A DNA stretch of 64,000 bases from Vicingaceae bacterium (GTDB taxonomy: Bacteria > Bacteroidota > Bacteroidia > Flavobacteriales_E > Vicingaceae), in assembly GCA_032251145.1 (NCBI GenBank), contig JAVVER010000001.1:17629-81628 (forward strand), written 5' to 3'. The notes under the pieces are model-generated. The model did no database searches, was not told the origin of the DNA, and worked only from the letters and a program-made list of their open reading frames with translations. Shown here piece after piece: positions 11,247-48,233 of this stretch (position 1 is the stretch's first letter; every line of letters begins with the position of its first letter). Both the position numbers and the translations under genes were made by a program.

Positions 11247-11300
11247 ACTTTTGTAAGGAATTTAAATTTATATCGACTAATCTTTTAAACTTTTTTAATT

Positions 11301-11636: not shown

Positions 11637-11639
11637 TTT

Positions 11640-12695: not shown

Positions 12696-12773
12696 AGAAA
12701 CAAAACATTAAGAAGTTAAGGGACATTAAGAAAAACATTTCATCAACTTAATGCCTTAATGGTAAAAAGAAAA
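12696..12773 (+). repeat. TTAAG/CTTAA triple-palindrome intergenic repeat, copy R1
   Basis: AGAAACAAAACATTAAGAAGTTAAGGGACATTAAG...CTTAATGCCTTAATGGTAAAAAG. Related copies at 32894-32970, 40531-40680, 46604-46680, 47098-47172 and 47209-47244. Confidence 0.8.
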
Positions 12774-13271
12774 ATGAAAAGAATAACTTACATATTATTA
12801 TTCCTAATAAACATGCAACAAACCATGGCTCAAAATACAGCATTTAAAAAAGTGTTAGACGACCATATTGCTCAAACTGTTCCTGTTATTTCGGTGGATT
12901 CTTTACACCAACACTTTGCTGAATTCACCGTTTTAGATACTCGTGAAATAGAAGAATTTGAGGTAAGCCACATCAAAAATGCTATTCATGTTGGATACAA
13001 TAATTTTTCCATCAAAAAAGTAAGTAAAGAAATCTCAACCAATAAACCCATTGTAGTTTACTGCTCTATTGGTTACCGAAGCGAAAAAATAGGGGAACAA
13101 CTTCAGAAAAAAGGGTATAACGTATATAACTTATACGGAGGAATTTTTCATTGGACTAACCAAGGTTATGAAGTAGTAAATTCAACAAAAAAAACGACTA
13201 AAAAAGTGCATGGCTACGATAAAAATTGGGGGATATGGCTAACGAAATCGGAGGTAGTTTATGGAAAATAA
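12774..13271 (+). CDS. secreted rhodanese-domain protein
   Basis: Active-site loop VVYCSIGYRSE and a signal peptide. The track start at 12759 lies inside repeat R1, so I prefer ATG at 12774 (MKRITYILLFL). Confidence 0.7.
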   Translation: MKRITYILLFLINMQQTMAQNTAFKKVLDDHIAQTVPVISVDSLHQHFAEFTVLDTREIEEFEVSHIKNAIHVGYNNFSIKKVSKEISTNKPIVVYCSIGYRSEKIGEQLQKKGYNVYNLYGGIFHWTNQGYEVVNSTKKTTKKVHGYDKNWGIWLTKSEVVYGK

Positions 13272-31983: not shown

Positions 31984-32871
31984 TTACAGTTTCCAATTTA
32001 ATGTTAACCCTGTAGCATTTCCATACCTAAATGGAGCAACAGACAAATTAGATTCTTTGTTTTTCTTTTTATGTAAATGTGGCACTAACCAACCCACAGA
32101 AGCACCAATGGCATAGCCAACAATTACATCGGAAGGAAAATGGTTTCCGGCATCTACCCTAAGATAAGCCATAGCGGCTGGAAGTGTTAAAGCAACTGTC
32201 CAAATTCCAACGCCAACTCCTTTTCTCATGTTAGGATGATAATCATGAATTACCTTAGCCATAAAAACAGAGAAAGCTGCGGTTTGTGCCGTATGTCCCG
32301 AAAAAAAAGATAACCTGCTGTTAGATGCTGTTCTAGCATCAAAAGAAAATTTGTCGCTATAAACTAATGGTCGGGTTCTGTTAAAGGTATATTTTGCATT
32401 CATGGTTAGCCCAGATGTTATGGCAAATACTTCAACTGCCATTATTCCAAGTCGTCCAATATCTTTTCCAGTGTGGTGATTGCTAAAAAAGAATAGAGGT
32501 AAGGCTAATTCCGAATAGAGTAAAATATCACTTAGTTTTTTAGAGCTTTTATCATCATTGTAAATAGCAACTCTGTCAAAACGATTTACTTCATCAGGAT
32601 TTAATTGGTTCAGCTCATTAAGAGTAAAAGCTGATTTTCCGTTATATTCTCTTAAAATTAACCCAGAACTAAGTAAACCTATACCAGCAACAAAAAATGG
32701 AATTTCTTTTTTAAAATTTATCTCATAAGGCGATTCGTTGGTGTGTTCGCCATTGACGCAATAGTTACAAATATGACCTGTTTTATTCAAGTTTACATCC
32801 TGAGCTTTTAGCTGACTAAAAAGCGTTAAAATAGACGTAAGTGTTAAAATTATTTTTTTAATTCTATACAT
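31984..32871 (-). CDS. PAP2 family lipid phosphatase
   Basis: KYTFNRTRP, SGHTA and RVDAGNHFPSDV match KxxxxxxRP / SGH / SRxxxxxHxxxD. The track start at 32907 lies inside a repeat, so I prefer ATG at 32871 (MYRIKKIILTL signal peptide). Confidence 0.8.
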   Translation of the reverse strand: MYRIKKIILTLTSILTLFSQLKAQDVNLNKTGHICNYCVNGEHTNESPYEINFKKEIPFFVAGIGLLSSGLILREYNGKSAFTLNELNQLNPDEVNRFDRVAIYNDDKSSKKLSDILLYSELALPLFFFSNHHTGKDIGRLGIMAVEVFAITSGLTMNAKYTFNRTRPLVYSDKFSFDARTASNSRLSFFSGHTAQTAAFSVFMAKVIHDYHPNMRKGVGVGIWTVALTLPAAMAYLRVDAGNHFPSDVIVGYAIGASVGWLVPHLHKKKNKESNLSVAPFRYGNATGLTLNWKL

Positions 32872-32893
32872 AGTTATTATAGTTTTACTATTT

Positions 32894-32970
32894 CTTTTTC
32901 CTACCATTTAGGCATTAAGATTATTAAGGTTTGTTTTTAATGGTTCTTAATTTCTTAATGGTTATTTAAT
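32894..32970 (-). repeat. TTAAG/CTTAA triple-palindrome intergenic repeat, copy R4
   Basis: The reverse complement aligns with 46604-46680 along its length. The right half AACCTTAATAATCTTAATGCCTAAATGG is almost identical. Confidence 0.8.
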
Positions 32971-35900
32971 TTAAAACAAAAATCCCATTTTAAGTATAAA
33001 TAAATTTTCTTCTGACGAAACAGCGTAAGAAGCATTAATTACCAACATATCAAAAGGACTCATCCAAACACCGCCACCAACACTGTTGTGCCATTTGGTT
33101 GATGTATCGTTGCTTGTCCAAACTCTACCTAAATCAAAAAAACCAAGTACGCCCAATTGACCAGGAAATAAATACGATTTAAAATTGGTGAGTTTTATGC
33201 GTAAATCCTGATTAAAAGTTAAACTACTTCTTCCCGAAAAGCGATCTCTTCTAAACCCTCTTAAATCGCCATTACGGTGGTTCCTGTTTTGAGCCCCAAT
33301 GGTTGCTGCTTGAAAAAATTCAAATTTATCCACCAAATGAACGCCTTTTACATTGGAAGAAAAAACCACATTTTTTCCGAAAGGCAAATACATGGCAAAT
33401 TGCGACTCTAACCTTCCAAAATGTAAACTTGCATTTTCTGCTTCTCTTTCCCAACTTCCGCTAACATGAAAATTAATTCCTCGTGTAGGGATTACTTTAC
33501 TATCGGTATTATTGAAAGAATATTGTAATTCCATGCCTAAATAATTTCGTGCTGAAAGGCTGCTTACATAATTGGAAGCTAAATCGCTTGTTATAAATCT
33601 ATCTTCAGACGCCTCTACATCAATGTGTTGGTATTTTGGTCCAAATTTAATTTCATTAAATTTCCCTACATTATGCACCAACATTGGTTGAAATTTAATT
33701 TCGTTAAATCGCACTAAGTGAAATGAGTTGTCTTCGCCATTTACTACTTGAGTTTCGTTACCTAAACCATAAAAATTAGTGGTACTATTGGGGGCGTTTA
33801 CAGACGCATCAATATCTAAGTCTAATTTTTTAATTAAATCAACAAATTTTCCATCATATTCAATATTAAAGCTATTGGTCTTCAACGCTCTATTGGCAAC
33901 AAACCGATTAAAATGAGCATAAGGTTTTTTTCTAAATCCGTGTTTGGTAATGGCAACTCCACCACCTAAAAACAAGCCATCATCAATATTATAACCTACA
34001 AATAATTGTGGAATAAGCATATCGTATTTAAACTCTTTCCTGTCGTATTCGTTAATCATTTTTTGATGCGAAACCAAGTTTTTTAATTCGTTGTTTTTTT
34101 CGCAAACTACTATGTTTTCTTCTTTTTTAGTATCATAATATTTTGTTTTTTTACGAAGTCCTTTTACGTTAGAAATGTCGGTAATTTCATCGTTGCCTTC
34201 TCCGCCAATTATTCGCACTAAAATTCCTTTGTTCACTTCTCCTTCTATGGTAAAAACATCTTTTCCGCCCAAGCCATAAATGCGTATTTCTTTGGTTTCA
34301 AAACGATTAAAATCTCTGCTGTAATACAAACTGCCTTTTTCTCCTTTTTTTAGGTGATATACTTTTACAGAAGTGATGGTATCATTTACTCTAACAATTT
34401 CAAATTTTTCAGCTTTATTACTTCCCACCACATTTACGTGTTTTGCCAGTACATAATAATATCTTTCGGCAAATTCTTGTAATTTATCTCTTCTCGAAAG
34501 CAATTTTGCAGTAATTTCTTCGCCATCAAGTTTATAAATGGTATCGGGCCAGAGTTTAATGGCATTAATAATCACACTATCGGTTAAGTTTTGTTGCATT
34601 TCGGCAGCCAAATCAAGCCATTCTTGTTTGTCTAACCGAGTTAAAAATGAACGGTCGATGTATCTTCCATTAAAATTCATCCCACTAATATCACGAATAT
34701 CGTAATCGAAATGCTGGAGTTTCCGAACCACCCATTTTCTTCCTGCCAAACGAGGAATTAAGCCATCAAACTTTACAAAAGCTTGGTCTCTATCTCTCGG
34801 AATTGGAATGTAGTATTTGTTGTTATCAATTAAATGGCTGCAATGCTCATGGTTTTCTTTTGCACAAGTATATTCAGCCCAACGCCATTGGTCTTCGTGC
34901 CTGTCCCAATCGCCAATAAGCATATCAAACAAACGATTTCGGAGCATTTCTTCCTCATCAACAACAAAATTATGATCATCTAACACCTTATGAATTAATT
35001 TTTGAGAATTGATGGCATTGGTGGTGTAACCAAAGTTTCCGGTTGAAGAAACATCTTTGGCAGCACGTTGCTCAAACAACATGAGTTGGTTGGCAAAATC
35101 TTCACGATATTCCAACAAGTGAGGGTCGTTTGGCACAGCAACTAGCTGTGGTTTAGAATGTAAAATACCCACTGCTTCTGCCATTGGCGGAATAACAAAA
35201 GCACTGTAAGGATGAGCAGTAGAAATTTGATCTTGCACCACTTCGGCAGCTGCGGTATTTCTTAATTCTTCGGGCAATGCTGCTGATGGGTCTTTTTGTA
35301 TGGATCGAAAAACATATTCGTTGCCATTTTCGGCTTTTAATCGGAGCGATTTAGTTTGTTGTCCGCCACCTCGCTGAATTGGTGTTAAACCTCCATAGGT
35401 ATTATGAATGTCAATTGTTGGCACTTCAACAGGAGTTTGCCATGCTTTTCGGTAATGTTCGCCCAGCAAAAACTTTTTCATAAAACTTGCTTCATAGTTT
35501 TCACCTGGGATTAATGTCATTGTTTTTGGAATACTTAATGTATCGGTAATATCAACATCTTCTTTACTTTCTTTTTGCTTTGCTTCAACCAAAATTTTGC
35601 TAAAAATAAGTTCCGATTTTTCGTTGGAAATTTGCCACGTTTCCATTAAAACAGCACCAGAATTAAGTACAATTAATTTAAAAAAACCTTTTTCTTCGGC
35701 AGAAAAATCAGGTGTTTTTAGTTGCTTAACGGGTGTTGTTTTACTTCCCGAACCACTTACAATATAATGGTGGTTTTGTTGTTCTGTTTTATCAAAATAT
35801 TGCAAATTATGTTCATGCCCGGCAGCATAAATCAGGTTTGGATGAAATTTAAAAACGTGCTGCAGTTCGCTAATCATTTCTTGGTATTCGGCATGGTTTA

Positions 35901-36699
35901 CATCTTGCAGATTGCCAATTTTTTTGCGATACAAAGGATAAATTGATCCTAAAATAGGCAGCGGAAGGTATAAATTTTTATTAAGATTAGTAAGTGGAAA
36001 AAGATGATCGGAAAAAGTAGCATAACCATTGTGTTCGCCTTTAGTCATTAACGGATGATGCCCTACAATTAAAACGGTTTTGTCCGTATTTTCTTCTAAA
36101 ATGTCTTTAATACTTGCAATTACATCGGCTTTGGTTTCTTCATCACAAGCTCCAGTTTCTATAGGCCCTTTTTCGTATTGATGCAGCCACCACTGTGTGT
36201 CAATGGCAATAATCACCATTTTTTTACTTATTTTTACTTTGTATGGGCCTGGACAGCCTCTTTCGGGAATTAACACGTCTTTTACATTAAAAGCATTTTC
36301 TAAATATTTTTGTTGATGATTGATATAGCTCAATCCGTTGCGATTACCTTGGTTCCAATCGTGATTGCCTGGAATAAAATAAATGGTTGACTTTAGCTCT
36401 TTTAACCGATTGATTTGATAATCAATTATCGCTTTAGCTTGTTCGTGATTTTTTTTGTTTTTTGGCGGAATTCCATTTGGATAAACATTATCTCCCAAAA
36501 AGAAAATGGTGCTTTTTTCTTCAATGGTTTTTGCTTGTTGAATTAATTCATTAAAAACGGCTTGTGTTTTTTCTTTTGGTTCACCAGCATCGCCTACTAA
36601 AAAGATAACATGATCAATACTGTCTTTATGTTGAGTAAAGGCTTTGCTAATTAGTAAAAAACTAAAAAAGAGGAGTGTGATATGATGTTTCGTGTTCAA
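32971..36699 (-). CDS. giant OM protein, paralog 3: metallophosphoesterase (intact motifs) + DRHxDNW module + Omp85-type barrel
   Basis: 1242 aa. TTG start is forced, since there is an in-frame stop 12 nt upstream and no earlier ATG. Signal peptide present. GDAG, GDNVYPNG, GNHDW, GHHP, GHEH. Central LIGDWDRHEDQWRW and PRDRDQAF. C-terminus RGFRRDRFSG ... GGGVWM ... MGFLF. Confidence 0.75.
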   Translation of the reverse strand: MNTKHHITLLFFSFLLISKAFTQHKDSIDHVIFLVGDAGEPKEKTQAVFNELIQQAKTIEEKSTIFFLGDNVYPNGIPPKNKKNHEQAKAIIDYQINRLKELKSTIYFIPGNHDWNQGNRNGLSYINHQQKYLENAFNVKDVLIPERGCPGPYKVKISKKMVIIAIDTQWWLHQYEKGPIETGACDEETKADVIASIKDILEENTDKTVLIVGHHPLMTKGEHNGYATFSDHLFPLTNLNKNLYLPLPILGSIYPLYRKKIGNLQDVNHAEYQEMISELQHVFKFHPNLIYAAGHEHNLQYFDKTEQQNHHYIVSGSGSKTTPVKQLKTPDFSAEEKGFFKLIVLNSGAVLMETWQISNEKSELIFSKILVEAKQKESKEDVDITDTLSIPKTMTLIPGENYEASFMKKFLLGEHYRKAWQTPVEVPTIDIHNTYGGLTPIQRGGGQQTKSLRLKAENGNEYVFRSIQKDPSAALPEELRNTAAAEVVQDQISTAHPYSAFVIPPMAEAVGILHSKPQLVAVPNDPHLLEYREDFANQLMLFEQRAAKDVSSTGNFGYTTNAINSQKLIHKVLDDHNFVVDEEEMLRNRLFDMLIGDWDRHEDQWRWAEYTCAKENHEHCSHLIDNNKYYIPIPRDRDQAFVKFDGLIPRLAGRKWVVRKLQHFDYDIRDISGMNFNGRYIDRSFLTRLDKQEWLDLAAEMQQNLTDSVIINAIKLWPDTIYKLDGEEITAKLLSRRDKLQEFAERYYYVLAKHVNVVGSNKAEKFEIVRVNDTITSVKVYHLKKGEKGSLYYSRDFNRFETKEIRIYGLGGKDVFTIEGEVNKGILVRIIGGEGNDEITDISNVKGLRKKTKYYDTKKEENIVVCEKNNELKNLVSHQKMINEYDRKEFKYDMLIPQLFVGYNIDDGLFLGGGVAITKHGFRKKPYAHFNRFVANRALKTNSFNIEYDGKFVDLIKKLDLDIDASVNAPNSTTNFYGLGNETQVVNGEDNSFHLVRFNEIKFQPMLVHNVGKFNEIKFGPKYQHIDVEASEDRFITSDLASNYVSSLSARNYLGMELQYSFNNTDSKVIPTRGINFHVSGSWEREAENASLHFGRLESQFAMYLPFGKNVVFSSNVKGVHLVDKFEFFQAATIGAQNRNHRNGDLRGFRRDRFSGRSSLTFNQDLRIKLTNFKSYLFPGQLGVLGFFDLGRVWTSNDTSTKWHNSVGGGVWMSPFDMLVINASYAVSSEENLFILKMGFLF

Positions 36700-36772
36700 G
36701 GTTTCAAGTTATTTTAAGTTTCTTCATTTTATAATTTATTCGCTTAATTCGTTCTCAAAAGACTGAACTAAT

Positions 36773-36883
36773 ATGTTAGAGTTCGAGGCTTTCGTAGTTT
36801 TGGAAATCAGGAGTTTACTTTCGTAAATGACTGGTTTTCAAAACAAGAATAACGAAGAAATCGGACATATTAGACAGTCTCTA
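36773..36883. repeat. 111-nt intergenic repeat, copy B
   Basis: 98/111 identical to 248-358. Hairpin arms are 36797-36818 and 36823-36844. The last 3 nt are the stop codon of paralog 2. Confidence 0.8.
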
Positions 36884-39800
36884 ATTAAAAGATTTTCCGA
36901 GACTAAACAATACAAAAACATTTTCTTCGTCAGAATGAGCTACCGATAAATTAAAAGTAAACTGTTCGTCTAAAAATCCCCAATAAATTCCACCACCGTA
37001 GGCACTGTGCCATTTGTTGGACAAATCTAAATCATCATAAATTCTACCGGTATCAAAAAAAGCTTTTATTCCCATTTTCATGGGTAAAAATGAAGTGGTA
37101 AAGTTAGCCAATTGTATGCGTAGTTCATTGTTTAAAAACAGGGTAGATTTCCCTGTAAATCTGTTTCTTCTAAACCCTCGCAAATTGTTGTTGCTACCCA
37201 AAAAAACCATATTGTAAAAAGGAATGTTTCCTTCGCTTATGGAACCTCCAGCTTTTGTGGCTAAAGTGATGGGAGATGGAATTCTTGCAGTTAAATAATG
37301 TTCTATAAATCCTTTAAAAATGTGGTAATCGGTTTTTTCGGAAACTACTTGTCCGTTTTGGTATTCGCTAACCAGTCGAACTCCCGACTCTGGAAGGTTA
37401 GAACGGTCTCTAAAATCTAAATCTAATCCTGCGGTGCTAACAATAATATCATTTCCTCTTGTTCCAAAAATGAGTGAAGAACTGTTTTCATCGGTTGCAG
37501 TAAAAAGTGTATTATCAGAAATTTGTGCAGAGTTGTACTCGTATTGAGTGGAGATATAAAAACTGCTTTTTTTACGAAAATCTCTAATTAAACCAAGGTG
37601 TGCCGAATAAGTGTTGTAAGTGGTTTTGTAATAATCAGCCGCACTCAAACTATCATCCTTTACCGTGTTGTTTCCTAAACCATAAAAGCTAGTTAGTTTG
37701 TTGTGGTTAGCTACTAACCCACCAACATTTACATCCCATTTGTGTAATACATGTCGGAACCTGCTGCTGTATTCAAAAATATTATTTTGTTCGGTGCTTA
37801 CTTCTAAATTAAATTTGTGCTTGGTAGAATAATCGGTGTTTTTGTAGTTTTCCCGTTGAGTAAAAACAACTCCTACACTAGTTCCAAAGCCATTGTCGGC
37901 ATTGTAGTTAAGCGAAAACAAAGGTAAATACCTGTTGTATTTAAATTTGGTGGGTTGGAAATCGTATAAATCTTCATTCCAAGTATTTATTTGCTTTGCT
38001 TCTGTTCCTAAAAACGAGTTTTCGTTAGTAGATTTCTCATAAACATAGGTTTGTTTACCAAGTGTTTTTACAGAAGAGCTATCCAAAATAACATCATCAC
38101 CTTTTCCGCCAACAATAATGATGGGTATGGATTTTTTCGCTTTACCTTTTAGCACAAAAATATCTTTACTGCCTAATCCATAAAGTCTAATTTCTTTGGT
38201 TTCTGATGGAAAAAATGTACGATGATAAAGTTGTTTCGTGCCTTTATGATGATTATCAACATCAAATATCCCAACATCAACCGTACCTGACGGATTTCTA
38301 GTAATTTCAAAAAATTCTTTTTCGTTCGTTCCAACAACATCTACTTGTTTGGCTAAAAGAAGATAATATTCTTCGGCATATTTATCCAAATCTTTTATTC
38401 TACTTTTTAATTTTTCGGCTATGGTTTTTCCCGATAGTTCATAAATTTCTTTGGGCAATGTTTGAGCAGCAATATCAATTAAACTATCGTTTAGCGAATG
38501 TTGAATGTAATCGCTTGCTTCCAGCCAATCTTTTCGGGTCATTTCGTTGGTTAACAACCTATCTTGTGGGGTTGCTACAAACATCAAACTTTTAACATCA
38601 TTAATTTTATATCCAAAATTTTCTCCTGCTTCTAGTATCCATTTTCTATCTAACAACCAAGGAATTATTCCATCCCATTGAACAAAAACTAGATCTCTAT
38701 CTCTTGGAATTGGTCGATAAAAAACGCCTGTATCGGTTTTGTAACCTGCCCATTTCCAATTGTCTTGATGTTTACCATGGTCGCCCACCAAAATATCAAA
38801 AACCCTGGCTTTGGTATATTCTTTTGCATCAATTTTATGATTTTGCTTGTCGTAGCGTTTTTTGTTTAACTCATGACTTTGGAGCAAGTAATCAGCATTA
38901 GCGAAAGCATTTTTTATCTTTTTAGGATTTTTTTGGTGATCTTCTAACGTACCTAACATTCCGCTATATTTATTGTAAATACCCAATTTAGGATGAGAAG
39001 GCAATACAAAAAGCTCAGGCTGAGCATGCAAAATAGAAGTGTTATCTAATAGTTTGCTTACAATTAATCCTCCGTAAGGATGCTGCATAGAAACATTATC
39101 TTGCAATTGGCGAGCTAATAAGGAGTGTTTTAGTTCGGCACTTAATCCTCTGGTAGCATCTTTATTTACCGAACGAAAAGTATAAGCAAAACCATCATTT
39201 CCAATCATTTTTACAGAAGTGGTTTGGTGTCCGCCACCTCTGTCGTAAGCAACTAATCCGTTTTTGGTGGTATCCATGTTTAAAATGGGCACTTCAACAA
39301 AAGTATTCCAACTTTTACGGTAATGTGTTCCTATAATAAACTTTCTAAAACGAGAGGCGTCATAATTTCCTGCATTAACTAAAGCTACATCTTCATTTTC
39401 AGGAAAATAAGTAGAAGACACATCTTTTAAACAACTTTTGTTGGCATAGTTTTCAGGAATGTCGTTTTTGCTCGAATCTAAAAGCGATTTGTAAAGCATT
39501 ACGCTTTTATCTAGCTCAAATTTTTCGTTTGTATAGTGGTAATTATGACTAACCACCGAGCCATCAATATTGTAATTTACTTTAGTGATGCTTGGTTTAG
39601 AAGTAGAATAAACGGCAAACCTTGTTTTTCTACCTTTTTTAGATGATTCTGGTAAACCGTTATTGATAAAATAGTTGTCAAAATCCTTAATTATTTGCGT
39701 GTTGTATTCGTGTGCCGAAAAATAAATTACCCCACTTTTTACCGACATCCTATTTAAAATTTTTTCTCTTATGGGATTAAAATGGGAGTTAATGATGTCT

Positions 39801-40525
39801 TTTTTTCCTCCAATATTTTGATGGTAATAGGTTTTAAAACTTCCATAAACAGGTGGAAATAAATGATTTGTAAAAGGCAGGTTTCCTTGTTCTACTAAAG
39901 GGAAATGCCCGGCTATAATTAAGTTTTTATCTTCGGTTTCTGCCAAGGCATTTTCTATCTCAATAATAAAATCTTTGGGGGTGTTTATATCGCAATTGGC
40001 ATTTACTACTTCTGGTTTTTTATAAGGATGATTCCACCATTGGGTATTGATTACCATCAACAACAAATTACTATCTAGCTCAATAAGTTCTGGACCGGGA
40101 CAACCCTTATCCAACACCCATTTAATGTTTTTAAATCCTTTGTATTCAACTAAATTTTCTAAGTATTTCACTTTTTTAATTCCTTTTTTACCCGAGTTAT
40201 CCCAATCTCTATCGCCAGCAACAACAATGGTTTGTGTGTTTGGAATTCCAGACAATTCGTTCAAAAAATTATACAACGGTAAGGAATCATTTTTTAAAAA
40301 TGCTGAACCATTTTTTTTGATTAAATCGCCATTTAAGATTAAAAGGGCAGGTAATTTTTCTTGAGCAATCAATGTTTTTAAAGCTGCTGCATAAGTAGGT
40401 TTATTTTTAATATCAACCACATTACCGATATTAATTACCTGATAATAAGGAACAACTTCAGTACTTTGCGAAAAAATACTTTTAGCAAAAAGGGATAGCA
40501 GCAATATTATAAAAAGTTGTTTCAT
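36881..40525 (-). CDS. giant OM protein, paralog 2: degenerate metallophosphoesterase + DRHxDNW-like module + Omp85-type barrel
   Basis: Same layout as paralog 3, but with motifs GDRDW, GHFP, AHEY and GDHGKHQDNWKW. The track start at 40543 lies inside a repeat, so I prefer ATG at 40525 (MKQLFIILLLSLF signal peptide). Confidence 0.75.
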   Translation of the reverse strand: MKQLFIILLLSLFAKSIFSQSTEVVPYYQVINIGNVVDIKNKPTYAAALKTLIAQEKLPALLILNGDLIKKNGSAFLKNDSLPLYNFLNELSGIPNTQTIVVAGDRDWDNSGKKGIKKVKYLENLVEYKGFKNIKWVLDKGCPGPELIELDSNLLLMVINTQWWNHPYKKPEVVNANCDINTPKDFIIEIENALAETEDKNLIIAGHFPLVEQGNLPFTNHLFPPVYGSFKTYYHQNIGGKKDIINSHFNPIREKILNRMSVKSGVIYFSAHEYNTQIIKDFDNYFINNGLPESSKKGRKTRFAVYSTSKPSITKVNYNIDGSVVSHNYHYTNEKFELDKSVMLYKSLLDSSKNDIPENYANKSCLKDVSSTYFPENEDVALVNAGNYDASRFRKFIIGTHYRKSWNTFVEVPILNMDTTKNGLVAYDRGGGHQTTSVKMIGNDGFAYTFRSVNKDATRGLSAELKHSLLARQLQDNVSMQHPYGGLIVSKLLDNTSILHAQPELFVLPSHPKLGIYNKYSGMLGTLEDHQKNPKKIKNAFANADYLLQSHELNKKRYDKQNHKIDAKEYTKARVFDILVGDHGKHQDNWKWAGYKTDTGVFYRPIPRDRDLVFVQWDGIIPWLLDRKWILEAGENFGYKINDVKSLMFVATPQDRLLTNEMTRKDWLEASDYIQHSLNDSLIDIAAQTLPKEIYELSGKTIAEKLKSRIKDLDKYAEEYYLLLAKQVDVVGTNEKEFFEITRNPSGTVDVGIFDVDNHHKGTKQLYHRTFFPSETKEIRLYGLGSKDIFVLKGKAKKSIPIIIVGGKGDDVILDSSSVKTLGKQTYVYEKSTNENSFLGTEAKQINTWNEDLYDFQPTKFKYNRYLPLFSLNYNADNGFGTSVGVVFTQRENYKNTDYSTKHKFNLEVSTEQNNIFEYSSRFRHVLHKWDVNVGGLVANHNKLTSFYGLGNNTVKDDSLSAADYYKTTYNTYSAHLGLIRDFRKKSSFYISTQYEYNSAQISDNTLFTATDENSSSLIFGTRGNDIIVSTAGLDLDFRDRSNLPESGVRLVSEYQNGQVVSEKTDYHIFKGFIEHYLTARIPSPITLATKAGGSISEGNIPFYNMVFLGSNNNLRGFRRNRFTGKSTLFLNNELRIQLANFTTSFLPMKMGIKAFFDTGRIYDDLDLSNKWHSAYGGGIYWGFLDEQFTFNLSVAHSDEENVFVLFSLGKSFN

Positions 40526-40530
40526 TATTT

Positions 40531-40680
40531 GTTTTTCTATCATTAAGGCATTAAGGTTATTAAGTGTTTGTTCTTAATGTTTCTTAACTTCTTAATGGTT
40601 TAATTATTTGTTTACTATTTTTTTCCACCATTAAGGCATTAAGTTTATTAAGGTTTTTTTCTTAATTCGTAATTCTCAAA
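40531..40680 (-). repeat. two tandem copies (R5, R6) of the TTAAG/CTTAA intergenic repeat
   Basis: 40531-40613 and about 40614-40680. Both contain CATTAAGGCATTAAG(G/T)TTATTAAGG, the reverse complement of the conserved right half. Confidence 0.75.
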
Positions 40681-40688
40681 TCGTACAT

Positions 40689-43600
40689 TTATATGATTAA
40701 TCCCAGTCCAATTTTTAAGAAAGCCTTTTGCTCATCAGAATATTCTACATTAACTTGTATGGTTATGTAATCTTTACTGATGGGTGTTAAATAAATTCCT
40801 CCGCCATAACCGTTGTGCCATTTTTTTTCTGTGAAGCTTTCATTTTCAACTATCTGACCAACATCTAAAAACGCATTTAAGCCGTAATACATAGGCAAAA
40901 AGCTCGATTTACTTTTTCCTAAATGGAAACGCAAATCGGTATTAACATAGTTGGTTGCCTCACCCGAAAACCGATTTTGTAAATATCCACGCAAGTGATA
41001 CGATTGCCCTATGCTGGCTAAATGATAAAAAGGAATGTTTTTGCCAAAAGTTCTTTCTGTTCCAGCTTTAACACCGAGTGTAATAGGAATAACAATGCGT
41101 GTAGTACTGTAATAACTAATTTCTGCACTTGTTTTGCCAAATGCTTTAGACGTTGTAAAAAGCGATTTATTTTCTAAAGTAACCCGAATACCTTTAGTGG
41201 TAAAGCTTGGGCTATCTCTAAAATCGAGGTCGAATTTTATTTCTCCACCTGTAGCATTGGTTGGTTCTAATTGTGGATTAGGAAACACATCAAAAAACGA
41301 TTGGTCGGAATGTCCTTTACTCAATAATTCGCTAACTGCATTAAGGGATATAAAGCTTCTTCGTAAAAAACGATAGGTAATTCCTCCCTTTAAAATAGCA
41401 CCTTGATACCTGGCTTTGTAATACCCTGCATCTTCCAGCGAATCTACTAAAACGGTTTTGTTGCCTACGCCATAAAAACTATAAAAAGGAAAGAAAGCAC
41501 CTAACTCAGCATTTCCGTTGAGGTAAAAATCGGAGTTACCAATATTTCTTTCAGTTTGCAAGGAAAAATAATTACTTCCGCCTGTGGTAGAAAATAGCTT
41601 CACATCGTGCAAGGTTTTGTATAATTTGTTGGCATAGCCAAAGCGTTTCATTTGCAAATTTATTCCACCACCAAAACCATCGTCAGGGTTTACTACTAAT
41701 AATGGAATTGGCAAGTAAGTATTGTATTTAAATGCGTCTTGATCAAATTCGTTTAACCTACTTTTTTCAGATAAAATGGTTCGAGTTTCTTTGCTTTTTT
41801 CGGTAAGCACATTGTTAGGATAATCGTAAATTAATGTTTTTTTAGTACCAAAACGCACGTTGGATTCGTCAATTACATTGTCATTACCATCGCCTCCCAT
41901 AATTCTTACTAAAATACTCTTGTTGCTTGTTCCATATACATAAAAACTATCGGCTTTAGCTAACCCAAACAAACGAATTTCTTTGGTTTCGTTAGGATAA
42001 AAAGTTCTGTTTAATAACACATTAGAAGTATCTTCTTTAGCGTACATACTCACTTCAACAGCTCCTGAAGGTAACCGATTTATCTTAAAAAACTCTGCTT
42101 TATTGGTGCCAACAATGTCAACTTCTTTAGAAAGTAACAAGTAATGTTTTTCTACAGCTTTATTTAATTCTGTTTTTCGTTTCTTCAATTTTTCGGCAAT
42201 TTCTTTTCCCGATTTTTCTTGCAGCGGCTCAGGAAAAGCAAGTTTGGCATCATCAATAACTTCGTCAGTAATTTGTGCATTAATGGTTTTAGCAGCTTTT
42301 AGCCAAGCTTGTTTATCCATACCCGATAAAAGCAGCCTATCTAAATGAGAACCTTTAATGGTTAAGCTTTTTATGCCAGTAAAGTGGTTGTTAAAATTTT
42401 CCCGAAAAGGAATTGCCCAATCTCTATCAGCCAAATAATAAAAGAAGCCATTCATTCTTGAAAAAGCGTGGTCTCTATCTTTCGGGTAAGGTTTGTAGGT
42501 GGTAATGCCTTGTTCGTTTTTATAGCCTATCCATTTCCAATTGTCTTGATGCCTGTCCCAATCGCCAATTAAAATATCAACAACTCTGGCTTCGGCATAT
42601 TGCATGGTATCAATATTGGTTTTTGGCGATTTATAAATTTTTTGAAGTAAACTCAAACTGCTTTTCACTTGGTCGGCTTGTTGGTAGCTTTTTGTTATAT
42701 CGTCTAATTCGGTAGGTTTGGGTTCTAACATTCCATACATTCCCGAAAACTGACTTCTAAAATCACCTAATTTTTCTGAGTCGGGCATAATGTAAAGTTT
42801 AGGAGTACCGTGATAAAGATTGGTTGCGTCTAGCAACTTTGCAACAAACAATGCACCGTATGGATGTTGAGTGGCAGTCATATCTTGCATAATGTTTGCC
42901 ACTAAATCAATCCGCAATTCAAAAGGAATGGCTTTTATGGGGGTTTTGTCGATAGAACGGAAAGCATATTTTCTTCCATCTTTATCAACAAATTGAAGCG
43001 AAATGGTTTGTAAACCACCTCCTTTTTTTAGAGGAGTAAGTCCGCCAAAGGTGGTGTCTAAATCAAGTGTTGGAATAGTTACGGGTGTTGTCCACGCATC
43101 GCGATATAAAGAACCGAAAAAAAGTTGTTTAAATTTTGATGCTTTGTAATCTCCTGCAACAATACTGTCGTTGGTAAAGTGTTTTAATTCGGCATTAGAT
43201 TTTATTTTATTTTTAAAAATATGTGTTTTCTTTTTACTTTCCAGCACAACACTTTTTGCTAACTCAAAGTTGTTTTCTTTTTTATCTAACACAAAAAACT
43301 TACTTACAATTGGCGTATTTTTTTGAATTTCTAACTTAACAAAACCAGTATTGTTGGTTTTAAAAATGGTGTTTTCTAAAGCACTAACTTGAGCACTTTT
43401 TACCAAGTTTCCTGAAATGATTTGATAGTTATAGTTCAAATTTAGCAACTGCATATCGTATTCGTGAGCCGAGCACATCACTACATTTTCGTGTTTTAAT
43501 AATACATCTTTAATTTCTTTGATGTAAAGCTGATATTGGTCGTTGCTTAAATCTTGAACAGAACCTATATTTTGACGATAGCAATGATAAAACGTACCAT

Positions 43601-44336
43601 ATAAAGGAATGAAAGTTTTATTATCAGGGTCGCTATGCGAAAACGGGAAAAATTGCCCCATAAAATTGGAGTTGCCACCATAAACTCCACCCGAAGTAAC
43701 GGGATGATGTGTTATAAAAATTACCTTTCTGTTTCCAGCATTTTCTATAGCAGCATCTAGTTCGTCTAAAATTTCAATTTTTAAAATCTCTTTACATTCA
43801 GAATCTATAGGAAGCACTTTTCGGTAAGGGTGTAGCCACCACTGAGAGTTAATGGCAATTATTCTAATATCATCTCCAATATCTTTTACATAAGGTCCTG
43901 GACAATCATTTTTTGGAAAAAAGATATTTTCGCCAAGTAGTTTTTTATAGGATTTCTGTAACGAACTTACTGTGTCTAAACCGTAATAACCAGAATTATC
44001 CCAATCTAAATCTCCAGTAACGGCTATGATTTCTGCCCCTTTTTCTTTTACTTTTTTAAGAAAATCGGATAGTATTTTGGTGTTTTCGGGCAAATCTTGA
44101 CGAACATCTCCTAAAAGCAGTAGTGTGAAAGGTTTTCCGTTTTGTTCTTGATGTAAAAAGCCTTCAAATTGTGTTAATCTTTCGGGGAGTTTAGTTCCAT
44201 TAAGATTACCTAAAACATAAATGTTGTTTTGAGCAATAACCAAATTTATAGATAGTATTAATACTACAAAGCTTAGTAAAAAGTGATGCAATTTATGAAT
44301 TACATTAATATTAATTTTGAAAGCAGAATTCTTCAT
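40689..44336 (-). CDS. giant OM protein, paralog 1: degenerate metallophosphoesterase + DRHxDNW module + Omp85-type barrel
   Basis: 1215 aa with a signal peptide. GDLDW, THHP, AHEY. LIGDWDRHQDNWKW and PKDRDHAF. C-terminus RGYLQNRFSG ... GGGIYL. Its ATG overlaps the stop of the upstream PAP2_3 gene (TAATG). Confidence 0.75.
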   Translation of the reverse strand: MKNSAFKININVIHKLHHFLLSFVVLILSINLVIAQNNIYVLGNLNGTKLPERLTQFEGFLHQEQNGKPFTLLLLGDVRQDLPENTKILSDFLKKVKEKGAEIIAVTGDLDWDNSGYYGLDTVSSLQKSYKKLLGENIFFPKNDCPGPYVKDIGDDIRIIAINSQWWLHPYRKVLPIDSECKEILKIEILDELDAAIENAGNRKVIFITHHPVTSGGVYGGNSNFMGQFFPFSHSDPDNKTFIPLYGTFYHCYRQNIGSVQDLSNDQYQLYIKEIKDVLLKHENVVMCSAHEYDMQLLNLNYNYQIISGNLVKSAQVSALENTIFKTNNTGFVKLEIQKNTPIVSKFFVLDKKENNFELAKSVVLESKKKTHIFKNKIKSNAELKHFTNDSIVAGDYKASKFKQLFFGSLYRDAWTTPVTIPTLDLDTTFGGLTPLKKGGGLQTISLQFVDKDGRKYAFRSIDKTPIKAIPFELRIDLVANIMQDMTATQHPYGALFVAKLLDATNLYHGTPKLYIMPDSEKLGDFRSQFSGMYGMLEPKPTELDDITKSYQQADQVKSSLSLLQKIYKSPKTNIDTMQYAEARVVDILIGDWDRHQDNWKWIGYKNEQGITTYKPYPKDRDHAFSRMNGFFYYLADRDWAIPFRENFNNHFTGIKSLTIKGSHLDRLLLSGMDKQAWLKAAKTINAQITDEVIDDAKLAFPEPLQEKSGKEIAEKLKKRKTELNKAVEKHYLLLSKEVDIVGTNKAEFFKINRLPSGAVEVSMYAKEDTSNVLLNRTFYPNETKEIRLFGLAKADSFYVYGTSNKSILVRIMGGDGNDNVIDESNVRFGTKKTLIYDYPNNVLTEKSKETRTILSEKSRLNEFDQDAFKYNTYLPIPLLVVNPDDGFGGGINLQMKRFGYANKLYKTLHDVKLFSTTGGSNYFSLQTERNIGNSDFYLNGNAELGAFFPFYSFYGVGNKTVLVDSLEDAGYYKARYQGAILKGGITYRFLRRSFISLNAVSELLSKGHSDQSFFDVFPNPQLEPTNATGGEIKFDLDFRDSPSFTTKGIRVTLENKSLFTTSKAFGKTSAEISYYSTTRIVIPITLGVKAGTERTFGKNIPFYHLASIGQSYHLRGYLQNRFSGEATNYVNTDLRFHLGKSKSSFLPMYYGLNAFLDVGQIVENESFTEKKWHNGYGGGIYLTPISKDYITIQVNVEYSDEQKAFLKIGLGLII

Positions 44337-45133
44337 TAGGATATTTTTCTTAACCCGAGTTTGCTTGAATTTACAAGCTGTAAATTTATCACTTTAACTT
44401 TCTTAGCTAGGTATAAAAAAGGATATGGTAAGAGCACTACAATTCCTCCTACAATAGCATCCATAAAAAAATGATTGCCGGTAACAACTATTACCAAAAG
44501 CACAAATATAGGGTAAAGGAGCAACAACCAAGTAGTAATTTTATTTTTAGTTAAAAAAGCAACAACAACACCAATAAGCAAAGCATTTCCAAAGTGCATG
44601 GATGGTACTGCGGCATATTGATTAAATAATCCAGAAAAAACACCCGAATAAAGATTTACATCACTTATTTTAAGTAAGGTATCGGTAAAACCAATATCAT
44701 TCAACATTCTGGGAGGGGCACACGGAAAATTAACATAAAAATACAAGGTAAGTGTATTGGCTAGTAAAAAGCCATTTCTCACAAATTTATAGTGAGTCTT
44801 TTTTTGATGATACAGCCAAACGAAAAAAGCTATAGTAATCGGTAAATGAGCTGTTACGTAAAATTTATTTAATATGGTTACTAATAAATGAGAATTAAGA
44901 AAATATTGTTGAATATCAATTTCATAAAAGATGCCTAACATCATTTCAATGTCCACTAAAAAATGAGCATTATGAAAAGCAGTTTGCTCATCACCAATGG
45001 CAAAATACCTAGATATTTTATAAAAGACCAAAAACAATAAAAAAATTAGTAACTCCTTTAATCCTTTATTTTTCAAAGATAAATACAAATATTTTGAATA
45101 GAATTCGTTGATGGTTTGATGTGAAAAAGTCAT
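44336..45133 (-). CDS. PAP2_3 (Aur1/inositol-phosphorylceramide synthase-like) membrane phospho-headgroup transferase
   Basis: AAVPSMHFG and TGNHFFMDAIVGG motifs, polytopic. The track start at 45316 would overlap the divergent gene at 45254, so I prefer ATG at 45133 (MTFSHQ). Confidence 0.65.
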   Translation of the reverse strand: MTFSHQTINEFYSKYLYLSLKNKGLKELLIFLLFLVFYKISRYFAIGDEQTAFHNAHFLVDIEMMLGIFYEIDIQQYFLNSHLLVTILNKFYVTAHLPITIAFFVWLYHQKKTHYKFVRNGFLLANTLTLYFYVNFPCAPPRMLNDIGFTDTLLKISDVNLYSGVFSGLFNQYAAVPSMHFGNALLIGVVVAFLTKNKITTWLLLLYPIFVLLVIVVTGNHFFMDAIVGGIVVLLPYPFLYLAKKVKVINLQLVNSSKLGLRKIS

Positions 45134-45253
45134 ATTAAATGCAAATAAATTTTTGAAAAGATAGACGATTGAAAATACTTTCCTGACATTAAAATCAAAT
45201 TTTGTAAGGTTTTCCGCTTTATTGCGACTAATTTTGGGAAACAAATTTTTTCT

Positions 45254-46603
45254 ATGAGTAAAGAACATATTGTCATTATTGGAAATGGTATTTCGGGAGT
45301 TTCTGCCGCACGTCATATCAGAAAGCTATCCGATAAAAAAATTACCATTATTTCTGCCGAAACTGATTACTTCTTTTCAAGAACAGCTTTGATGTATGTT
45401 TACATGGGACACATGAAGTTTGAACACACACAACCCTACGAACCTTGGTTTTGGAAGAAAAATAACATTGAGCTTAAAAAAGCTTTTGTGAAAACGGTTG
45501 ATACTGCAAACAAAACACTTGTTTTTGATACCGCTGAAACCATGAGTTATGATAAATTAATTATTGCTACGGGTTCAAAACCGAACAAATTTGGTTGGCC
45601 TGGACAAGATGCTGACGGGGTAATGGGCATGTATCATAAACAAGATTTAGAAAATTTAGAAAAATATGCTCCAAACAATAAAGCATGTAAAAGAGCGGTA
45701 ATTGTTGGCGGTGGATTAATAGGTATTGAACTAGCCGAAATGCTTGTTAGCCGAGCTATTCCCGTAACTTTTTTGGTAAGAGAAAACAGTTTTTGGAGCA
45801 AAGTACTTCCAAAAGAAGAATCAGCAATGATTAATAAACATATTCTTGAGCATCATATCGATTTACGGCTAAATACTAATCTTAAAGAAATTAAAGCTGA
45901 TGAAAACGGCAAAGTAAAATCCGTAATTATTGAAGAAACTGGTGAAGAACTGCCTTGCAATGTGGTTGGACTTACAGCTGGAGTTTCACCCAATATTGAT
46001 TTTTTAAAAGATTCGGGAATAACCTTAGGAAGAGGCGTCAAAGTAAACCGATTTTTAGAAACCAATGTGCCAGATGTTTTTGCTATTGGTGATTGTGCCG
46101 AACAACACGAACCTATTGGAGAAAGAAGAGCCATTGAAGCAGTTTGGTACACTGGAAGAATGATGGGTGAAACAGTAGCTCAAACCATTTGTGGAAATAA
46201 ATTGGCTTACCAACCCGGACATTGGTTTAATTCGGCTAAATTTTTAGATATTGAATATCAAACTTACGGTTGGGTATGGGCGGAACCTAAAGAAAACGAA
46301 AAACATTTTTATTGGGAACACGAAAGCGGTAAAAAATCTATTCGTTTGAGTTATGATAAAAACACCCACGAATTTATTGGTGTAAACAATTTTGGAATTA
46401 GAATGCGACACGAGTTCTTTGACAAAATGCTTACCGAAAAACAATCTGTGGAGTATGTGTTGGAACATTTAGCTGATGCCAACTTCGACCCCGAATTTTA
46501 CCAATTGCACGAGGCGGAAATTGTTGCCAAATTCAATAAAGAAAACAATACCAATATTACATTGAAAAAGAAAAATTGGAAACGAATTTTTTCGATGTCT
46601 TAA
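45254..46603 (+). CDS. NAD(P)/FAD-dependent (pyridine nucleotide-disulfide type) oxidoreductase
   Basis: Two Rossmann motifs (IVIIGNGISG, AVIVGGGLIGIE) and a GD motif (AIGDCAE). Confidence 0.8.
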   Translation: MSKEHIVIIGNGISGVSAARHIRKLSDKKITIISAETDYFFSRTALMYVYMGHMKFEHTQPYEPWFWKKNNIELKKAFVKTVDTANKTLVFDTAETMSYDKLIIATGSKPNKFGWPGQDADGVMGMYHKQDLENLEKYAPNNKACKRAVIVGGGLIGIELAEMLVSRAIPVTFLVRENSFWSKVLPKEESAMINKHILEHHIDLRLNTNLKEIKADENGKVKSVIIEETGEELPCNVVGLTAGVSPNIDFLKDSGITLGRGVKVNRFLETNVPDVFAIGDCAEQHEPIGERRAIEAVWYTGRMMGETVAQTICGNKLAYQPGHWFNSAKFLDIEYQTYGWVWAEPKENEKHFYWEHESGKKSIRLSYDKNTHEFIGVNNFGIRMRHEFFDKMLTEKQSVEYVLEHLADANFDPEFYQLHEAEIVAKFNKENNTNITLKKKNWKRIFSMS

Positions 46604-46680
46604 AGAAACAAATCATTAAGAAATTAAGGAACATTAAGAATTAAAACCTTAATAATCTTAATGCCTTAATGGTAAAAAAG
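46604..46680 (+). repeat. TTAAG/CTTAA triple-palindrome intergenic repeat, copy R2
   Basis: Starts directly after the stop codon, as R1 does (TAAAGAAACAAA). Three ATTAAG units are mirrored by three CTTAAT units. Confidence 0.85.
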
Positions 46681-46688
46681 AAAAATTA

Positions 46689-47093
46689 ATGACAAAAAAA
46701 GAAGTAACACAATTATCTTATGAAATAATAGGTTGTGCAATAACCGTTCATAAAGAACTTGGTCCAGGGTTATTAGAAAGTGTATATGAACAATGTTTGA
46801 AATATGAATTAATTAAAAATGGATATAAAGTAACGCAGCAATTAATCGTTCCAGTAATTTATAATGAACTCGAAATGGAGGTTAATTTAAGAGTTGATTT
46901 ATTAGTTAATGATGTTGTTGTTATAGAATTAAAAGCAGTAGAAAATATTCTTCCTGTTCATGAAGCTCAATTATTAACCTATATGAAATTATTAAAAAAA
47001 CCTCAGGGGTTATTAATAAATTTTTACACTGATAATATTGCAAAATCTAAAAAACCATTTGTTAATGAGTATTTTTCTCAATTGCCTGATTAA
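46689..47093 (+). CDS. GxxExxY family protein (PD-(D/E)xK nuclease-like fold)
   Basis: 134 aa with GPGLLESVYEQCL (GxxExxY) and a later DLLV...IELK block. Confidence 0.75.
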   Translation: MTKKEVTQLSYEIIGCAITVHKELGPGLLESVYEQCLKYELIKNGYKVTQQLIVPVIYNELEMEVNLRVDLLVNDVVVIELKAVENILPVHEAQLLTYMKLLKKPQGLLINFYTDNIAKSKKPFVNEYFSQLPD

Positions 47094-47097
47094 AAAT

Positions 47098-47244
47098 AGA
47101 AAACCATTGAGAAATTAAGAAAAATTAAGAGCTAAAACCTTAATAATCTTAATGCCTTAATGGTGAAAAAAGATGATAAATTGAAACCTTTTATAAAGTA
47201 AGAACAATAACCTTAATCAACTTAATTCCTTAATGGTAAAAAAA
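47098..47244 (+). repeat. TTAAG/CTTAA repeat copy R3 (47098-47172) plus right-half copy R3b (47209-47244)
   Basis: The R3 right half AAAACCTTAATAATCTTAATGCCTTAATGGT is identical to R2. R3b is AACCTTAATCAACTTAATTCCTTAATGGTAAAAAAA. Confidence 0.8.
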
Positions 47245-47255
47245 TAAAAAAAACT

Positions 47256-48233
47256 ATGAAATCAATTAGCTTAACTCTTATCCTTTTTGGATTTATCAGT
47301 TGCGGAAATAGCAACAATACACACCAAGAATCAAACACTACTAACACAACTGAAAATATTGTGTCTGAACAACCTATTGAAGCTGCTCAAGAAGTTGAAG
47401 CAACAAAAGAAGAAGAACTTGTTACCGAAGTTACAGAAGAAGAAACAGTTGAAAGTTTGAAACCAGAAACTTCAAGTCCTAAACCTCAAACTCCAAACAA
47501 AAAACCTGTAACTGAAGCTAAACCTCAACCAACTATTGAAGAAACACTTCCTGAACCTGAAAAAGAAATTGTGGTAAACGACAAACCCAATCATCAAGCA
47601 TGGGATGAACTCGCTAAAAAATACGTTACGGCAAATGGAAAAGTAAATTACAACGGCTTTAAATCTGAATTAGATAAATTAAAAAAATACATTGATTATT
47701 TGGGTGAAAATCCTGTAAAATCTACTTGGAGTAAAAACGAAGAGTTGGCTTATTGGTTTAATCTTTACAATGCTTCAACGGTTTATTTAATTGCTTCTAA
47801 TTATCCAACTTCTAGCATTACCAAGTTGGAAAAAGGCAAACCTTGGGACAAAAAATTCATTAAATCGGGCGATAAAACCTACTCGCTCAACGACATTGAA
47901 AATGTTATTGTTCGTCCGAAATTCAACGAACCCCTAGTGCATGTTGCTTTCAACTGTGCAGCAGTTTCTTGCCCTATTTTGCTCAATGAAGCTTTTGTTG
48001 CCGAAAAACTAACTACTCAGCTTACTAAACAAGCAAAAAATTGGGTAAATGATGCATCAAAAAATGAACTTTCTGCCGACAAAATTAAAGTAAGCCAAAT
48101 TTTCGATTGGTACAAAGCTGATTTCGATAAAGTGGGCGGTGTAATTGGTTTTATCAATAAATACAGCACAACGAAAATAAACGAAAACGCAAAAATTTCT
48201 TACTTAGAATACAACTGGAATTTAAACGAATAA
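47256..48233 (+). CDS. DUF547-domain lipoprotein with an acidic/Pro-rich linker
   Basis: Lipobox FISC. AYWFNLYNAS and HVAFNCAAVSCPIL are typical DUF547 motifs. Confidence 0.75.
   Translation: MKSISLTLILFGFISCGNSNNTHQESNTTNTTENIVSEQPIEAAQEVEATKEEELVTEVTEEETVESLKPETSSPKPQTPNKKPVTEAKPQPTIEETLPEPEKEIVVNDKPNHQAWDELAKKYVTANGKVNYNGFKSELDKLKKYIDYLGENPVKSTWSKNEELAYWFNLYNASTVYLIASNYPTSSITKLEKGKPWDKKFIKSGDKTYSLNDIENVIVRPKFNEPLVHVAFNCAAVSCPILLNEAFVAEKLTTQLTKQAKNWVNDASKNELSADKIKVSQIFDWYKADFDKVGGVIGFINKYSTTKINENAKISYLEYNWNLNE

Follow-up and report, generated by a model that had tools for sequence, protein, structure and literature searches.

A local family of ATTAAG hairpin repeats in the operon gaps around a GxxExxY gene

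Seven repeat copies in the window

The DNA analysed here (the window, i.e., the whole stretch of 64,000 nucleotides) belongs to an assembly, G000, of 3.38 Mb in 223 contigs, which is 97% complete and has 32% G+C. Between its genes lie seven copies of a repeat of ~80 nt, five of them full, one with a degenerate left arm and one reduced to the right arm, and two of these copies stand on either side of a small gene of the GxxExxY family. The original prediction had placed seven copies in this stretch, and a covariance model relocated all of them. They are given below with the GxxExxY gene (bit scores are those of the covariance model; dG in kcal/mol).

12696..12775, + strand: copy 1, between an ArsS-type radical SAM gene (stop 12693-12695) and a rhodanese gene (ATG 12776); 78.4 bits; dG -11.1, z -2.7
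32891..32970, - strand: copy 2, between Omp85/metallophosphatase paralogue 3 (stop near 32971) and a PAP2 gene; 81.2 bits; dG -12.5, z -3.6
40527..40607, - strand: copy 3, immediately 5' of the start of Omp85-type paralogue 2 (ATG at 40524); 87.7 bits; dG -14.5, z -8.1
40615..40692, - strand: copy 4; 70.3 bits; fold z -1.2 (40613-40690)
46604..46685, + strand: copy 5, beginning at the stop of an FAD oxidoreductase gene and ending 8 nt 5' of the GxxExxY start codon; 87.3 bits; dG -16.2, z -4.8
46689..47093, + strand: GxxExxY gene, 134 aa; PF13366 E 3e-39, TIGR04256 E 3e-41
47095..47176, + strand: copy 6; 88.1 bits; dG -20.0, z -7.9
47178..47249, + strand: copy 7, a weak match, 21 nt 5' of the start of a DUF547 lipoprotein gene (47256); 29.2 bits, E 0.002; fold z +1.1

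Each arm of the element is an array of three 6-7-nt words at a spacing of 8-10 nt, ATTAAG on the left and CTTAAT on the right. The parts follow one another as an A-rich lead-in, (A/T)CCATTAAG, AA, (A/G)TTAAG, 3-4 nt, CATTAAG and a ~9-nt A-rich loop, past which come CTTAAT, AAN, CTTAAT, GC, CTTAATGG and a tail, e.g., TAAAAAAGAAAA; the arms close as ACC...GGT, and the A-rich tail is next. As the original prediction had pointed out, two copies start with the same TAAAGAAACAAA directly after stop codons (12693-12695 and 46601-46603). The right-arm unit nearest the loop is degenerate in copy 1 (TTTCAT). Copy 4 stands in tandem with copy 3 and has a degenerate left arm and an intact right arm; its tail, ATAGTAAACAAATAAT, recurs after copy 3. 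The sole direct repeat is the right arm with its leader, which is duplicated in the tandem copies. Copy 6 begins 1 nt past the GxxExxY stop codon, and ~31 nt of its right half are the same as in copy 5. Of copy 7 just the right arm is present (47209-47244), with an A-rich leader behind it.

The five full copies are predicted to fold into a three-stem hairpin (dG -11 to -20 kcal/mol, z -2.7 to -8.1). The pairing of the two halves as three stems, as first described, holds for these five, but neither copy 4 (z -1.2) nor the half copy 7 (z +1.1) forms such a hairpin. All seven copies lie between genes of the same strand and share the orientation of those genes, which bears out the placement reported at the outset, and they end 12-35 nt before the next start codon.

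That the resemblance among the copies is a coincidence of AT-rich, low-complexity DNA is scarcely credible. The genome does have only 32% G+C, and CTTAAT and ATTAAG occur ~1,500 times each. Nevertheless, 6 matches to the triple-CTTAAT pattern were counted in the window where 100 dinucleotide-preserving shuffles give an expectation of 0.00, nhmmer retrieves the seven copies with the profile made from them at E-values of 4e-16 to 8e-10, the model scores reach 70-88 bits, and copies 82-86% identical to those of G000 are found in other genomes. The shuffle test, the nhmmer E-values and the model scores refute coincidence. The family is real; its first description was correct and the scale assigned to it was wrong.

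As regards that scale, this is not a family dispersed through the whole genome: nhmmer --max over the entire 3.38-Mb assembly gave only the seven copies, all of them within 35 kb (G000:C1:30320-64876), with the proviso that in an assembly of 223 contigs further unassembled copies are possible. The chance that five independent sites fall within such a span is ~5e-8. Of the 11 genus genomes searched with the model, G001 and G007 gave one copy each and G005 a weak match, and the 87 genomes of the family added only G091 and G076; G001, G007, G091 and G076 each hold one copy, without a clade-matched GxxExxY gene. In Belliella, all 7 model matches lie within ~1.2 kb of a GxxExxY gene, and in Ferruginibacter three tandem copies stand beside a GxxExxY gene, with one other place matching on both strands. 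The idea of a genome-wide REP family was rejected on the strength of nhmmer --max and of the model searches of the 11 genus and 87 family genomes. The ATTAAG hairpin family is a gene-proximal repeat, and its 35-kb spread in G000 is the widest seen.

Gaps in relatives, orientation and RNA structure

The gene order of the window is kept in G007, with proteins 85-93% identical. All five gaps that are occupied in G000 differ in G007 and G010, where the contents include G+C-richer hairpins, e.g., CCCCTCCGAAGGAGGGG, CCCAATTGCGAATAATTGGG and AAACCTCCAAGGTTTTTAAAACCTTGGAGGTTT, and the GxxExxY block is absent from its gap in both genomes. At the copy 2 gap, G007 has an unrelated hairpin and L119 a ~10-nt spacer alone; more distant relatives (L119 and others) show a TAATG stop/start overlap and a ~10-nt spacer at two gaps. 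The one CTTAAT copy of G007 lies in the gap between paralogues 2 and 3, where G000 holds an unrelated 111-nt repeat, and the copy 7 gap holds a CTTAAT hairpin of two units in G076, a genome of a different genus. The flanking genes of metagenome contig L116 (RRYU01018423.1) are 96-98% identical to those of the window; at the site of copies 3 and 4 this contig carries the G007-type 124-nt spacer and the copies are absent, and at this gap, between paralogues 1 and 2, the swap between G000 and L116 runs exactly from stop codon to start codon. No target-site duplication was seen between filled and empty gaps (G000 compared with L116 and G007, and the cassette gaps described below).

The copies are therefore polymorphic between relatives, as the original prediction had allowed for, the gaps differing in G007, G010 and L116. 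Because orthologous gaps in congeners and in a strain 96-98% identical hold unrelated spacers, the repeats are neither conserved operators nor riboswitch-like elements. The stop/start overlap, the ~10-nt spacers and the strain-variable gaps further mean that the elements are later additions to a once tightly packed operon, varying between close strains. Identity among the G000 copies is only 75-90%, and they lie about as far from those of G007 and G001, which means that they are not a fresh burst; the nearest relatives of copy 3 are the G001 and G007 copies. Given these identities and the affinities of copy 3, the difference between G000 and L116 may reflect allelic recombination as much as fresh insertion, since allelic recombination between strains could yield a whole-spacer swap as easily as insertion could.

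Two minor observations belong to the same gaps. Omp85-type paralogue 2 starts with ATG in G000 (window 40524) and with TTG in L116 (L116:1379) and G007 (L030 ~6235); the ATG adjoins the CTTAAT element and the TTG adjoins the older spacer, the swap taking in the first base of the start codon. The unrelated 111-nt repeat lies at window 36773-36883, and in L116 (L116:5045-5100) this repeat has an extra 53-nt insert containing ATTCGTGAGTTCAC.

The strain comparison also bears on whether the repeats form an operator array, i.e., whether a TTAAG-recognising factor co-regulates the arsenosugar, lipid-phosphatase and Omp85 cluster. All copies do lie in one 35-kb neighbourhood, and words recurring every 8-10 bp resemble multi-site operators. 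Even so, we regard this as very improbable: G007, G010 and L116, the last 96-98% identical, lack the copies or have something else at the orthologous gaps, the copies sit between cistrons and close to start codons, where no promoter is expected, and in other orders the element flanks GxxExxY genes in unrelated contexts.

Relative to the genes that follow, the tails after the stem are 70-85% A in the sense strand (TAAAAAAG-type) and carry no T-tract, in agreement with the original report that no U-tract follows the hairpin in this direction; a stem-loop with a U-tract directly behind it, as in an intrinsic terminator, is thus not found in the sense direction. In the antisense direction, the 8 nt past the stem hold 5-7 T. 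A scan for terminators and promoters over 32000-48000 called none at the elements, which for terminators is attributable to the AT-rich stems. Over the whole genome, A makes up 45% and G 9% of the 20 nt preceding start codons, and such A-rich upstream regions match the Shine-Dalgarno-free, A-dependent initiation described in Flavobacterium (PMC6847099).

An RNA-level role, as stabiliser or processing site, had been among the first suggestions. In its fuller form, the hairpins would be host RNA elements within polycistronic mRNA, serving as a stabiliser of the upstream 3' end, as a 5' stabiliser or as an insulator of the downstream A-rich initiation region, and the GxxExxY genes would be secondary passengers in or next to them. 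The strict gene orientation, the fixed position before the start codon and the predicted stability of the hairpins speak for this, as does the fact that unrelated hairpins fill the same gaps in relatives, as if a hairpin were wanted there. Cells with G·U outnumber those with A·C by 11:4 in an alignment of 21 copies and by 31:11 in one of 27, which leans to the sense strand; this excess is inherited and not independent. Conserved pairing, proposed as a check on the family, was not borne out by covariation: among 27 copies from several orders, 0 pairs had changed on both sides, and the covariation score fell below the shuffled mean. About 90% of cells pair in the 21- and 27-copy alignments, and likewise after shuffling, and copies from different orders share an uncompensated CATGAAG/CTTAAT mismatch. 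Moreover, two window copies without a left arm retain the right arm, and the gaps are almost empty in more distant relatives. Rfam gave no family at the elements, the only hit at gathering score in the window being a tRNA, and by E-value nothing below ~0.9 in 46500-47350. The alignments thus lend no support to a selected RNA structure, and with 0 compensatory pairs in 27 copies the stabiliser or processing role is left unsupported by covariation. We consider a host RNA element unlikely.

The GxxExxY gene and its flanking words

The gene at 46689-47093 gave nothing beyond PF13366 and TIGR04256 in searches of Pfam and NCBIfam. PF13366/GxxExxY is a very large family whose function is listed as unknown (PMC3424549). 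A word-indexed search found at least ~8,000 relatives of the window protein, many of them at 75-88% identity in distant Bacteroidota, and an exact-sequence look-up of the protein returned no record. Since a sequence search of the PDB found no solved relative, a predicted structure was used instead (pLDDT 93.4, pTM 0.86). Its best structural match in the PDB was Cas4 SSO0001 (4IC1; TM 0.57-0.59 normalised to the query), followed by lambda exonuclease, the Cas4-family ACE1 and RecB-type nuclease domains. Residues D70, E80 and K82 and those of the GxxE motif are invariant in 28 homologues. On this model, the protein is predicted to be a minimal RecB/Cas4-like PD-(D/E)XK nuclease with its catalytic D70/E80/K82 intact. 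The original prediction had looked to a REP-associated tyrosine transposase or other partner elsewhere in the genome; a protein-coding partner does lie between the copies, but it is a GxxExxY gene and not such a transposase. We propose this gene as the putative cognate partner of the repeats.

To what extent the word follows the protein can be seen from the relatives of the gene. All eight close homologues (75-88% identity), i.e., those of G017 (Vicingaceae, 75%), Belliella aquatica, Owenweeksia hongkongensis, Ferruginibacter, Saprospiraceae, Weeksellaceae and two metagenome contigs (names per assembly labels), are bracketed by ACCATTAAG...CTTAATGGT hairpins. These have the form ACCATTAAG-AAGTTAAG-NNCAT(T/G)AAG ... 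CTTAAT-CTTAAT-CTTAATGGT, often as tandem arrays, and all the repeats beside the homologues are co-oriented with the GxxExxY gene. The homologues from other orders sit in unrelated gene contexts with the same flanking element. By comparison, ATTAAG is missing from the arms of all 29 remaining GxxExxY paralogues in the genus, which carry other words; in a G005 paralogue of 60% identity the architecture is unchanged, but each of the six word positions is filled by CACAGAG/CTCTGTG. These results show that the pairing of gene and repeat recurs in several Bacteroidota orders, and that the link between word and protein clade is strict, one-to-one and kept across orders. The earlier idea of a target for a TTAAG-recognising protein would be compatible with such a strict link between word and GxxExxY clade. 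A full-text literature search found no published link of GxxExxY/PF13366 to repeats.

Inverted word arrays bracket 19 of the 30 PF13366 genes in the genus, against 4 of 297 size-matched controls (bracketing being an alignment score of 29 or more, with two GxxExxY genes in the control sample excluded). The words of the arms vary by gene, with ACCACAGAG, ACCGCAAAG, CTCGCAAAG, GCCACGAAT, GCCACAGAT, CCCGCAGAT and ACCACATAG found elsewhere and ACCATTAAG in the window, while the layout stays constant at 2-3 tandem 7-nt words per inverted arm with an 8-10-nt period. The window locus fits this layout, having matching words on both sides of its PF13366 gene and being co-oriented with the downstream gene, and co-orientation of the GxxExxY gene with the downstream gene was seen in 33 of 33 cases examined. 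PF13366 is wholly absent from 3 of the 11 genus genomes, and three other G000 cassettes (on C8, C19 and C22) are missing at the same gaps in G004, G006 and G007. In the C8 cassette, the right arm and the leader of the downstream gene are present on both sides of the ORF.

Several further observations were made on these cassettes and on arms that lack a gene. One side of the C19 cassette (G000:C19 ~11050-12000, L088) carries a single arm in triplicate and the other side four arm-like units, and the cassette also contains a duplicated fragment of the GxxExxY 3' end, a layout that points to tandem partial duplications at the arms. At the gap of the C22 cassette, L101 (G007:C208, ~6300-6450) has an 8-nt microsatellite, TTGTTA[TC]A, of ~7 units, and in G006 a left arm, AACCGCAAAGAAGCAAAGGTTTCGCAAAG, stands alone, with no gene. 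Solo arms of the form TGCGTCTTTGCGTCTTTGCGAGAG are dispersed in intergenic DNA of G000 (C11, C19, C20, C24, C35, C47, C49 and others); CTTTGCGAG has 35 matches in G000, and solo arms often lie beside microrepeats like ATTAGAGATTAGAAATT. Solo arms of the CTTTGCG type in G000 are co-oriented with the neighbouring genes in 13 cases and anti-oriented in 1, the numbers in the other G000 word families being too small for orientation statistics.

Proposed explanation and comparison with known systems

Taken together, the co-location of the repeats with the gene, the match of words in all eight close homologues and the gene-proximal clustering lead us to read the elements as gene-less copies of the cognate repeat of one GxxExxY nuclease clade, to which we assign a probability of about 0.6. 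As in REP/RAYT and NTS/Ssn, the nuclease would recognise the words of its own array, probably on DNA that is single-stranded or folded into a hairpin. Arms, either alone or together with the gene, might then be copied into gaps close by, through breaks made by the nuclease or through arm-to-arm recombination. Only the sense orientation would survive in operons, since it presents an AT-rich hairpin followed by an A-rich leader, and that leader would resemble the Shine-Dalgarno-free initiation regions of Bacteroidota. Antisense copies, by contrast, would put a terminator-like hairpin with a T-run, and a T-rich leader, before the next gene, and selection in operons probably removes them owing to this terminator-like appearance and T-rich leader. 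Most likely, the repeats ride the operon gaps in a harmless orientation. Points against the cognate-repeat reading are the single copies in G001, G007, G091 and G076, where no clade-matched gene accompanies them, the divergence among the G000 copies, and the filled gaps, which showed neither a target-site duplication nor a scar.

The nearest parallels are with known nuclease-plus-repeat systems. Repeats of the NTS/SRM type are the cleavage sites of Ssn (GIY-YIG) ssDNA nucleases and number hundreds of copies per genome, and in Neisseria the NTS repeats with the SsnA nuclease are reported to modulate recombination, transformation or repair (PMC11893778). The locus described here resembles NTS/Ssn in having a stand-alone nuclease gene with hairpin repeats 5' and 3', and in having gene-less repeats as well; for NTS/Ssn the association extends across phyla. 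Unlike the GIY-YIG enzymes, the protein encoded here has a predicted PD-(D/E)XK fold, and whereas cleavage has been demonstrated for Ssn, GxxExxY is a candidate nuclease from its sequence and predicted structure. This likeness raises the question of whether the repeats, as cognate targets of the nuclease, form with it a pair that serves the host in recombination, transformation or repair near particular genes. The layout, with a small nuclease gene and hairpin repeats on both sides, is as in NTS/Ssn (PMC11893778), and the clade is highly conserved, at 75-88% identity across orders. However, the copies are few and all near the gene, as opposed to hundreds around many genes for NTS, and the occurrence in congeners is patchy, with PF13366 missing from 3 of 11 genomes. 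A service to the host is thus rather improbable.

In REPIN/RAYT systems, REP doublets forming hairpins are found with a REP-associated tyrosine transposase (PMC3116915, PMC2817692, PMC6006769). The present repeat shares with them an extragenic hairpin doublet of inverted short repeats (the fold of the five full copies), a small nuclease-type gene flanked by repeats, a lineage-specific repeat and singlet arms. It differs in its partner, PD-(D/E)XK (RecB/Cas4-like) here and an HUH Y1 transposase (PF01797) there; in its arms, with three 6-7-nt words here and a 20-40-bp palindrome with a GTAG/CGTC head there; and in number, with few gene-proximal copies here and hundreds dispersed through the genome there. 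REP super-families have a conserved GTAG or CGTC tetranucleotide at the end of the palindrome (PMC3733652). No GTAG/CGTC head was found in the aligned copies, whose arms close as (A)CCATTAAG ... CTTAATGG(T).

Bacterial MITEs such as Correia/NEMIS, RUP, ERIC and RPE are another point of comparison. Like MITEs, the elements are small and non-coding, have inverted ends, are co-transcribed with their neighbours and are polymorphic between strains; unlike MITEs, they show no target-site duplication, have no parent insertion sequence with a transposase and have a low local copy number. The only gene found between matching ends was that of the 134-aa PF13366 nuclease. The original label of a REP/BIME- or MITE-like element is accordingly apt for the hairpin doublets, the polymorphism of the gaps and the presence of a cognate gene, but not for a RAYT partner, a genome-wide distribution or a target-site duplication, none of which was found.

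A literature search found no published description of the pairing of a GxxExxY gene with hairpins. The strict link between clade and word offers a directly testable guess at the substrate of a GxxExxY nuclease, and the paralogues of 60% identity with another word provide a natural series of altered specificities; word-specific GxxExxY enzymes could also serve as tools, as Ssn did. The cognate-repeat reading would further account for a frequent origin of odd hairpins between the cistrons of Bacteroidota operons, and such hairpins should not be annotated as terminators or riboswitches. A broader proposal, which we put forward tentatively as possible but doubtful, is that GxxExxY proteins in general act as sequence-specific nucleases, with a 6-7-nt word particular to every clade and read as an array on a hairpin, and that the unit of gene and array spreads by local copying and by horizontal transfer between Bacteroidota orders. 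If true, such word-reading units would be a third kind of nuclease-plus-repeat system, structurally unrelated to HUH/REP and GIY-YIG/NTS, with a specificity that shifts with the protein, from ATTAAG at 75% identity or more to CACAGAG at 60%.

Other small-gene loci in the same genome were compared with the GxxExxY cassettes. A RAYT was considered as partner of the repeats and rejected: the four PF01797 genes of G000 lie on other contigs with flanking repeats of their own, and no ATTAAG/CTTAAT arrays were found at these four Y1_Tnp genes, which have at most 2 stray hexamers. One of them, the Y1_Tnp (PF01797) gene at G000:C63:11815-12153, has palindromes of its own on both sides (GCGATGAGCTAACACTCATCGC and AGCTCCGAAGGAGCG types), a classical REP/RAYT-like arrangement present alongside the GxxExxY cassettes. 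Intervening sequences of 23S rRNA with an ORF (23S_rRNA_IVP, PF05635) have inverted flanks that form a long stem with the ORF in the loop. The GxxExxY cassettes are alike in having inverted flanks that form a long stem and a small ORF in the loop, and unlike in that they lie in mRNA gaps and carry a different ORF family. At G000:C32:7956-8337, a 23S_rRNA_IVP gene (PF05635, E 1e-30) is bracketed by inverted TAACGATTAACAA-type word arrays, and by virtue of this bracketing a second small-ORF family in G000 shows the same hairpin-in-gap habit as GxxExxY.
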